Of a stretch of DNA of 64,000 nt, positions 51,485 to 52,294 are shown one piece after another. Source of the stretch: Escherichia coli (GTDB taxonomy: Bacteria; Pseudomonadota; Gammaproteobacteria; Enterobacterales; Enterobacteriaceae); NCBI RefSeq assembly GCF_001677475.2, contig NZ_CP015229.1. The stretch is one strand, 5' to 3'. The notes beneath the pieces are model-generated. The model worked only from the letters and a program-made list of their open reading frames with translations, was not told the DNA's origin and searched no databases. The number at the start of each line of letters is the position of its first letter. Position 1 is the first letter of the stretch. The position numbers and the translations under genes were made by a program.

Positions 51485-52294
51485 ATGTTTTTAATTAATG
51501 GAAAATGTAACGATGAGTTACCGGCTTGTGACAGGAGCATACAGTTCGGTGATGGATGTTTTACAACGGCTGTGATAAACCGTGGGCAGGTAGTACTCTT
51601 GACCGCGCATTTAACACGTTTACGTGAAGCCTGCTCCCGTTTAAGCATTCCTTATTCCGACTGGTCTATACTGGAAGATGAGATGCAAAGTCTGGCACGA
51701 CAAGCTGAGCGTGGCGTTTTAAAAGTTATTATCACTCGCGGCAGCGGTGGTCGAGGATATAGCATCGCCCACTGCGAATCGCCTGGGCGCATTTTATCTG
51801 TCTCCCCCTTTCCTGAACATTACACCCGCTGGCGGCGGGAAGGTATTACTCTGGCGCTAAGTCCAGTACGCCTTGGACGTAATCCTTATCTCGCAGGAAT
51901 TAAACATCTTAATCGGCTTGAGCAAGTATTGATCCGCTCTCATCTTGAGCAGACAAACGCTGATGAGGCGCTGGTCCTTGACAGCGAAGGGTGGGTTACG
52001 GAATGCTGTGCGGCTAATTTGTTCTGGCGGAAGGGCAACGTAGTTTATACGCCGCGACTGGATCAGGCAGGTGTTAACGGCATTATGCGACAATTCTGTA
52101 TCCGTTTACTGGCACAATCCTCTTATCAGCTTGTCGAAGTACAAGCCTCGCTGGAGGAGGTGATGCAGGCAGATGAGATGGTAGTCTGTAATGCGTTGAT
52201 GCCAGTGATTCCCGTGCGTGCCTGTGGCGAAGCCTCCTTTTCGTCAACAACGCTATATGAATATTTAGCCCCACTTTGTGAGCACCCGAATTAG
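51485..52294 (+). CDS. pabC: Aminodeoxychorismate lyase PabC
   Basis: 269 aa; class IV aminotransferase fold; followed by mltG as in E. coli. Confidence 0.9.

Follow-up and report, generated by a model that had tools for sequence, protein, structure and literature searches.

A mosaic pabC gene beside a fimbrial operon in Escherichia coli and its probable import from another Escherichia lineage

In E. coli and Salmonella, the housekeeping gene gnd hitch-hikes with the neighbouring O-antigen (rfb) cluster. Introgression from cryptic clades of the genus (E. marmotae, E. ruysiae and others) has also brought sequence into E. coli, and the mosaic penicillin-binding protein genes of Neisseria and Streptococcus are products of interspecies recombination. 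Here we analyze a 64,000-nt stretch of an E. coli chromosome (the window), in which six fimbrial genes (the island) lie next to a pabC gene of mixed ancestry. We found no description of a fimbrial locus between fabF and pabC in the searchable full-text literature.

A fimbrial operon and a mosaic pabC between fabF and mltG

The window is collinear with the chromosome of E. coli K-12 MG1655, with 98.2-98.7% identity over 57 kb, excepting a 6.4-kb insertion that stands in place of the 119-nt spacer separating fabF and pabC in K-12. Because of this collinearity and of the 99.2% identity of its 8-kb right flank to many E. coli genomes, the chromosome background is that of E. coli proper; the flanks of the tract discussed below are 99.1% identical to K-12. 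A non-E. coli origin of the window, considered on the basis of megablast identities of 92-95%, was dropped, its flanks being 98.5-99.2% identical to E. coli. Besides K-12, all three annotated complete E. coli genomes that we read have fabF adjacent to pabC. In the window the six fimbrial genes sit between the two, on the minus strand at 45144-51129, and pabC is followed by mltG, tmk and holB (Table 1).

Table 1. Features of the locus in window coordinates, with the identity of pabC segments to K-12 and the ancestry type of each stretch.
Feature	Coordinates	Strand	Description
fabF	43844..45085	+	E. coli-type until ~44731, 3' tail mosaic
Sequence left of the tract	up to 44731		K-12 type
Proposed imported tract, 7,554 nt	44764..52317		fabF tail, island, entire pabC, first 21 nt of mltG
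fabF tail	44764-44854		donor type
fabF tail	44887-44989		K-12-type patch
fabF tail	45007-45082		donor type
Inverted repeat then T-run	45085..45151	n/a	33-nt arms, 76% complementary; between convergent fabF and last fimbrial gene
Fimbrial minor subunit, 175 aa	45144..45671	-	Pfam Fimbrial E = 4e-15
Probable fimbrial subunit, 174 aa	45686..46210	-	without Pfam match; related-locus counterparts match Fimbrial
Putative tip adhesin, 346-aa ORF	46217..47257	-	role suggested by operon position
Outer-membrane usher, 857 aa	47241..49814	-	Pfam Usher E = 5e-198; PapC_N, PapC_C
Periplasmic chaperone, 225 aa	49844..50521	-	Pfam PapD_N, PapD_C
Major fimbrial subunit, 177 aa	50596..51129	-	Pfam Fimbrial E = 6e-19
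Island			missing in K-12; 97-100% identical to L080
Divergent intergenic region	51130..51484	n/a	AT-rich, ~34% GC; fimbrial operon/pabC; replaces the K-12 119-nt spacer
pabC	51485-52294	+	269 codons, 810 nt; same length as K-12 pabC
pabC nt 1-324	51485-51808		DNA identity to K-12 58%
pabC and its 5' ancestry run	51490-51934		donor type, 161/163 sites
pabC segment	51809-51934		DNA identity to K-12 79%
pabC segment	51935-52107		DNA identity to K-12 100% (173 nt)
pabC ancestry run	51961-52103		K-12 type, 9/9 sites
pabC 3' end and mltG start	52108-52317		DNA identity to K-12 90%; donor type, 20/20 sites
mltG (yceG)	52297..53319	+	E. coli-type from 52318 on
Sequence right of the tract	from 52318		K-12 type; right import end between 52317 and 52318
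Right flank	beyond 52317		identity to K-12 ~99% (95 differences/9,977 nt)

Two other places in the window drew our attention. In holB, 11 differences from K-12 fall within ~115 nt (54192-54306), which resembles a second import; this was rejected, because E. coli EM10-18-28 has the window sequence there without change and it is K-12 that deviates; the pattern is ordinary polymorphism. Between flagellar genes, the alignment with K-12 is interrupted for ~90 nt at 26514-26607; the ~110-nt sequence at this break is 77% similar to a second copy at 5352-5461 and is probably a small intergenic repeat element.

The island encodes together an usher, a PapD-type chaperone and pilin-fold subunits, as recognized by Pfam. 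The six-gene cluster is thus a chaperone-usher fimbrial operon, and surface fimbriae are predicted from its genes. The exact sequence of the major subunit was found on 222 Escherichia contigs. The putative tip adhesin, called as 331 aa in locus L006, has no Pfam match in the window copy or in the copies of L006, L007 and L079-L082, all of them near-identical or ~94% identical to that of the window, and its counterparts in the Citrobacter and Salmonella loci L009, L010 and L012 match Pfam Fimbrial.

The inverted repeat at the fabF end of the island looks like a bidirectional terminator, and a simple terminator scan of 45085..45151 called none. The divergent region on the other side (51130..51484) must presumably hold the promoters of both pabC and the fimbrial operon; promoter-like matches are no commoner there than in shuffled sequence, and terminator and promoter scans of both intergenic regions gave nothing above shuffled expectation. 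We found no integrase or transposase in the island, the six fimbrial ORFs being the only ones between fabF and pabC, and a repeat search found no direct repeats pairing its two boundaries, which fits homologous recombination and not site-specific insertion.

The pabC of the window aligns with that of K-12 over its full length without gaps. The original prediction, that about the first 115 residues of the protein are unlike K-12 and the rest nearly identical, agrees well with the protein alignment, where identity is 54% over residues 1-118 and 93% over residues 119-269. At the DNA level, a segment-wise alignment with K-12 pabC gave 58, 79, 100 and 90% identity, which rules out uniform high identity along the gene; differences number 163 in the first 450 nt and 19 in the last 360 nt (Fisher p = 1e-28). 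The divergent span had been placed at 51485-51850, which holds for the protein but not for synonymous sites, where deep divergence reaches 51934: these sites are saturated in codons 1-108 (pS 0.78), with a dS of 1.1 in codons 109-150. Near-identity of the 3' half to K-12 is likewise true of the protein but not of the DNA, which is 90% identical over the last 210 nt. This segment (52108-52317, pabC codons 208-269 plus 21 nt of mltG) has a dS of 0.24 and is more diverged than the flank, with 21/210 versus 95/9,977 differences from K-12 (p = 2e-14), and no match above 94.1% to 51840-52330 was found among the collected complete E. coli genomes. The preceding segment (51935-52107), which codes for a portion of the enzyme's most conserved block, has 0 differences from K-12, A3 and EM10, versus 9-10 from the loci L079-L082 described below. 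The pabC of the window is confirmed as a real mosaic, and its 3' half is itself mosaic at the DNA level.

Concerning the enzyme, the window PabC matches Pfam Aminotran_4 (E = 7e-53) over profile positions 1-222 of 223, and aligns with the E. coli PabC structure 1ET0 over residues 1-269 without gaps (E = 3e-135). The motifs FGDGCFTT and RGxGGRGY, as well as the lysine of AGIKHLN, which we take to be the PLP-binding residue, are kept in the window PabC and in nearly all compared alleles, with rare single-residue variants such as FGDGSFTT in Salmonella P0130. Since it is full length and keeps these conserved motifs, the chimeric PabC is presumably active. The gene shows no apparent sign of selection on itself, and its mosaic structure seems to be a side effect of selection or drift on the adjacent operon. 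Among the compared alleles, one E. coli PabC (P0100) has residues ~33-50 unrelated to any other allele, as if produced by two compensating frameshifts or by sequencing errors.

The imported tract and its likely donor lineage

Candidate donors were taken from the 90%-identity protein cluster that contains the window PabC. They comprise the loci L079-L082 (records E. coli H605, Escherichia sp. MR and Escherichia sp. 93.0816). Along 5.2 kb of flanking sequence, from mltG to ptsG, their identity is 92.7-93.0% to both the window and K-12, and ~94% to E. marmotae L008; because of these values, they belong to a separate non-coli Escherichia lineage, which we infer may be E. ruysiae. Over the tract itself L080 is 99.15% identical to the window (63 mismatches in 7,555 aligned positions), versus 92.7% in the flank, and L079 is 98.6% identical over 44764-52317. 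This non-coli Escherichia is the likely donor lineage. The sampled loci differ from the tract by 0.85-1.4%, so the actual donor strain is not among them. E. marmotae L008 was rejected as donor, its operon being 69% and its PabC N-terminal half 68% identical to those of the window; an usher scan of species representative genomes gave no close donor, with a best match of 72% and no Escherichia representative among the matches.

Ancestry was called at the sites where L080 and K-12 differ, each being scored as L080-like or K-12-like in the window. In the flanking core genes, donor-type runs cover 44764-45082 and 51490-52317 and are bounded by discrete junctions, with E. coli-type sequence outside (Table 1). 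Over pabC 51485-51934 the window differs from K-12 at 163/450 nt and from L080 at 4/450, and over 52108-52317 it has 1 difference from L080 versus 21 from K-12. The window FabF ends in KRV-stop, not KKI-stop. The proposal that the island arrived together with adjacent pabC sequence by homologous recombination is well supported by this donor-type tract (44764-52317), which takes in the tail of fabF as well. As for a breakpoint inside pabC, junctions do exist there but none of the import lies at residue ~115: donor type is unbroken over 51490-51934, gives way to an E. coli-type patch and resumes at 52108-52317.

These data make very probable, in our view, a history in two layers, namely a recent 7.55-kb import into E. 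coli by homologous recombination, and an older island-linked haplotype of the pabC 5' part in the donor. In the recent layer, an E. coli chromosome would have gained ~7.55 kb from a non-coli Escherichia that already bore the fabF-pabC operon, a direction of transfer suggested by which of the genomes is mixed. RecA-type homologous recombination in the flanking core genes would have integrated the tract, with the left crossover within the last ~320 nt of fabF and the right crossover 21 nt into mltG. The two E. coli-type patches (44887-44989 and 51935-52107) might have arisen by heteroduplex repair during the import or by later conversion.

In the older layer, a haplotype tied to the operon would comprise the 5' part of pabC (codons 1-150 in the window) and ~80 nt at the end of fabF, in the donor as well as in all examined island carriers of six genera; its synonymous sites are saturated relative to the island-free haplotype, and the 3' part of pabC follows the species. 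When L080 is compared with K-12, synonymous sites are saturated in codons 1-108 (pS 0.77, dN 0.41), and codons 109-150 have a dS of 1.2 with a dN of only 0.095. From codon 151, dS is 0.21-0.24, which we take as the ordinary divergence between the lineages because their flanks differ by ~7%. The donor's own pabC would then be a chimera of older date, joined near codon 150. The proteins would look alike over residues 119-150 because of strong constraint there, and the protein step near residue 118 can be understood from the older junction together with this constraint.

Neither megablast nor sensitive blastn finds the island or the 5' part of the window pabC in any of 5,426 complete E. coli genomes. 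A protein search with the N-terminal 125 residues only returned fragments of at most 67% identity; searching with the entire protein was informative. A second E. coli haplotype (L007), whose E. coli flanks are 98.5% identical, carries an operon ~94-95% identical to that of the window, with 93.3% identity across the whole imported tract and a right junction at 51851-51862 (~codons 123-126), and is an independent acquisition. The usher of L007 (5873-8329, corresponding to window 47244-47443) is called as 818 aa, not 857 aa, and the DNA of its 3' end and of the adhesin start is just 62-78% identical to the window, which could reflect a local replacement or a frameshift.

A set of PabC sequences (P0051-P0058) joins Citrobacter- or Klebsiella-like N-terminal halves to an E. 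coli-type C-terminal half. They come mostly from contigs of ~5 kb or less in metagenome or sequencing-run assemblies (P0058 is on a 26-kb contig), and may have arisen either by further natural recombination in the same junction zone or during assembly.

The existence of such short mixed-half sequences, which could be chimeras, lends something to the idea that the window mosaic is itself an assembly or contamination chimera of E. coli with a cryptic Escherichia strain. The chance of this is close to nil: the exact PabC (ANO88411.1) recurs in 55 blocks of the assembly index and, by cluster look-up, on 43 contigs, the longest of 5.5 Mb, and L006 reproduces the window at 99.98% over 20.8 kb; so many carrying contigs, together with L006, indicate that the mosaic is not an assembly artefact. 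A simpler reading of the import itself would have a single junction in pabC near residue 115, with everything downstream native to E. coli. It accounts for the step in protein identity from 54% to 93% at ~residue 118 and holds for L007 with its junction at ~codons 123-126, but for the window it is extremely unlikely, given the donor-type sites that run on to 51934 and reappear at 52108-52317, and given that the last 210 nt are 90% identical to K-12 versus 99.5% to L080.

Import could be dispensed with altogether if the island were ancestral in E. coli and this strain had retained what nearly all others deleted. The same fabF-pabC site is occupied in at least six genera, so the island is old here and losses must have occurred. 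We nonetheless judge this very unlikely, since the tract and its flanks show 99.15% and just 92.7% identity, respectively, to one and the same lineage, ancestry switches sharply at 44764 and 52317, L007 differs by 6.7% across the same tract with different junctions, and a deletion cannot produce 42% divergence in a retained pabC 5' half. That divergence might instead have arisen in place, by relaxed or positive selection after insertion of the operon and with no intragenic recombination; the N-terminal half of PabC is fast-evolving in all lineages, with only 64% identity between K-12 and island-free Salmonella. Such an origin is hardly credible at all in view of the synonymous saturation (pS 0.78) next to flanking genes that are ~99% identical, of a 5' sequence 99% identical to the allele of another species, of the abrupt transitions, and of the conflicting trees given by the two halves (100% versus 0% bootstrap, see below). 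Import from the non-coli lineage on top of an older donor haplotype is the reading that we retain.

The fabF-pabC site in other Enterobacteriaceae

When PabC alleles with unusual N-termini from other genomes were traced to their contigs, each was found to adjoin a homologous six-gene operon at fabF-pabC. The carriers are Citrobacter portucalensis (L009), Salmonella enterica subsp. salamae (L010, L011) and subsp. houtenae (L012). E. marmotae L008 also has the operon by pabC, on a contig that begins inside the operon and leaves fabF out of view. A scan by usher alignment, with one genome per species, gave five orthologues of 67-72% identity (in Pluralibacter, Kluyvera georgiana, S. enterica subsp. 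arizonae, Klebsiella oxytoca and C. braakii), and 5/5 lie between fabF and pabC; the other matches of the scan are at most 59% identical, and none adjoins fabF or pabC. The typical pabC alleles of Salmonella, Citrobacter and Leclercia belong to island-free loci. Between island-plus and island-free loci of Citrobacter and of Salmonella, the first 240-360 nt of pabC are 50-65% identical and the remainder at least 90%, and the last 60 nt of fabF are ~82% identical in the same pairs. In the comparison of alleles with and without the operon, suggested with the original prediction, the 5' divergence tracks the operon in the Citrobacter and Salmonella pairs. Taken together, the sequences indicate that a fimbrial operon has been exchanged repeatedly at fabF-pabC in the Enterobacteriaceae.

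Some of these loci have further peculiarities. In L012 (houtenae), a stretch at 10540-11320 that is 58-83% identical to island-free Salmonella extends across the 3' half of pabC and ~500 nt into mltG, and the C-terminal half of PabC is 87% identical to Citrobacter versus 78% to Salmonella, which suggests a longer import from a Citrobacter-like donor. In L017 (C. braakii ATCC 51113, pabC at 4509-5306), the C-terminal half is 81% identical to Kluyvera georgiana and 70-71% to other Citrobacter, and the entire pabC may be foreign in this strain. In E. marmotae L008, fhuE, which E. coli has between ptsG and hinT, is missing from the contig (10488-10951).

Neighbour-joining trees of the two PabC halves, from 16 alleles, are in conflict. 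The C-terminal-half tree groups the alleles by genus, with a bootstrap of 100 for Escherichia, for the Citrobacter pair and for the Salmonella trio. In the N-terminal-half tree, which rests on a saturated region, the genus groups receive 0% bootstrap, and the Escherichia island-plus group receives 93% and the island-free group 66%. Support for a single island-free clade is only moderate (66%) and the region is saturated, so that the trees do not cleanly separate an ancient dimorphism from many transfers out of distant donors. We therefore mention only tentatively, as a possible but rather doubtful extension, that the presence or absence of the operon and of its linked pabC 5' half may be a very old dimorphism of the fabF-pabC site, predating the split of E. 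coli and Salmonella and passed among genera by recombination. Two facts hint toward an old dimorphism: the dN of 0.40 between the two E. coli haplotypes exceeds that of 0.24 between K-12 and the island-free alleles of Salmonella, and the island-linked pabC mosaic is seen in three genera. The linked unit would move by recombination anchored on fabF and on a ~120-nt ultra-conserved block of pabC.

Recombination between diverged genomes depends on short, exactly matching stretches and is impeded by mismatch repair. Between genera, nt 1-420 of pabC have a mean identity of 50-75% and no exact run of 20 nt, and nt 421-540 have a mean pairwise identity of 81-93% and nearly all of the exact runs (20-53 nt); fabF is highly conserved along its length. 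The gene fabF and the conserved pabC block would hence be the nearest flanking sites of the operon at which crossovers are feasible, and we infer that crossovers between diverged genomes may collect at pabC nt ~420-545. The handful of junction positions, at nt ~240 in Citrobacter, ~360 in salamae, E. marmotae and L007, and ~450 in the donor lineage, agree only partly with such an anchor, and the latest import extended past all of these, to the pabC/mltG boundary.

Comparison with known systems

The locus offers a fully resolved case in which a surface-adhesin operon would have passed from a sister species to E. coli, with donor, junctions and patches mapped. Typing or phylogeny based on pabC or on the tail of fabF would misplace the carrier strains. 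The natural chimeras also suggest that PabC N-terminal halves of ~54% identity work with the same C-terminal half, a property that may be usable for enzyme engineering.

The process proposed here, in which a surface cluster would move by recombination in its flanks and carry along part of a housekeeping neighbour, is well known. As with gnd and rfb, a cluster for a surface structure appears to be swapped via flanking core genes, and the neighbouring housekeeping gene is extra-divergent and has a conflicting phylogeny. However, the fimbrial operon is either present or absent, whereas rfb is always present in different versions; moreover, just the 5' half of pabC is deeply divergent, and its dimorphism recurs in several genera. 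As in introgression from cryptic clades, a ~7%-divergent tract with mosaic ends lies in an otherwise E. coli chromosome, although the donor is placed here just to the lineage, 94% identical to E. marmotae L008 and 92.7% to E. coli. The island also resembles the polymorphic chaperone-usher operons found at fixed sites in Enterobacteriaceae, being AT-rich, without mobility genes and made of six genes (major subunit, chaperone, usher, adhesin-like protein and two minor subunits), but its nearest ushers in species representative genomes are only 67-72% identical. Finally, like the mosaic genes of Neisseria and Streptococcus, pabC consists of blocks of unequal divergence within one intact ORF, with junctions in conserved stretches; unlike them, pabC itself gives no evidence of selection.
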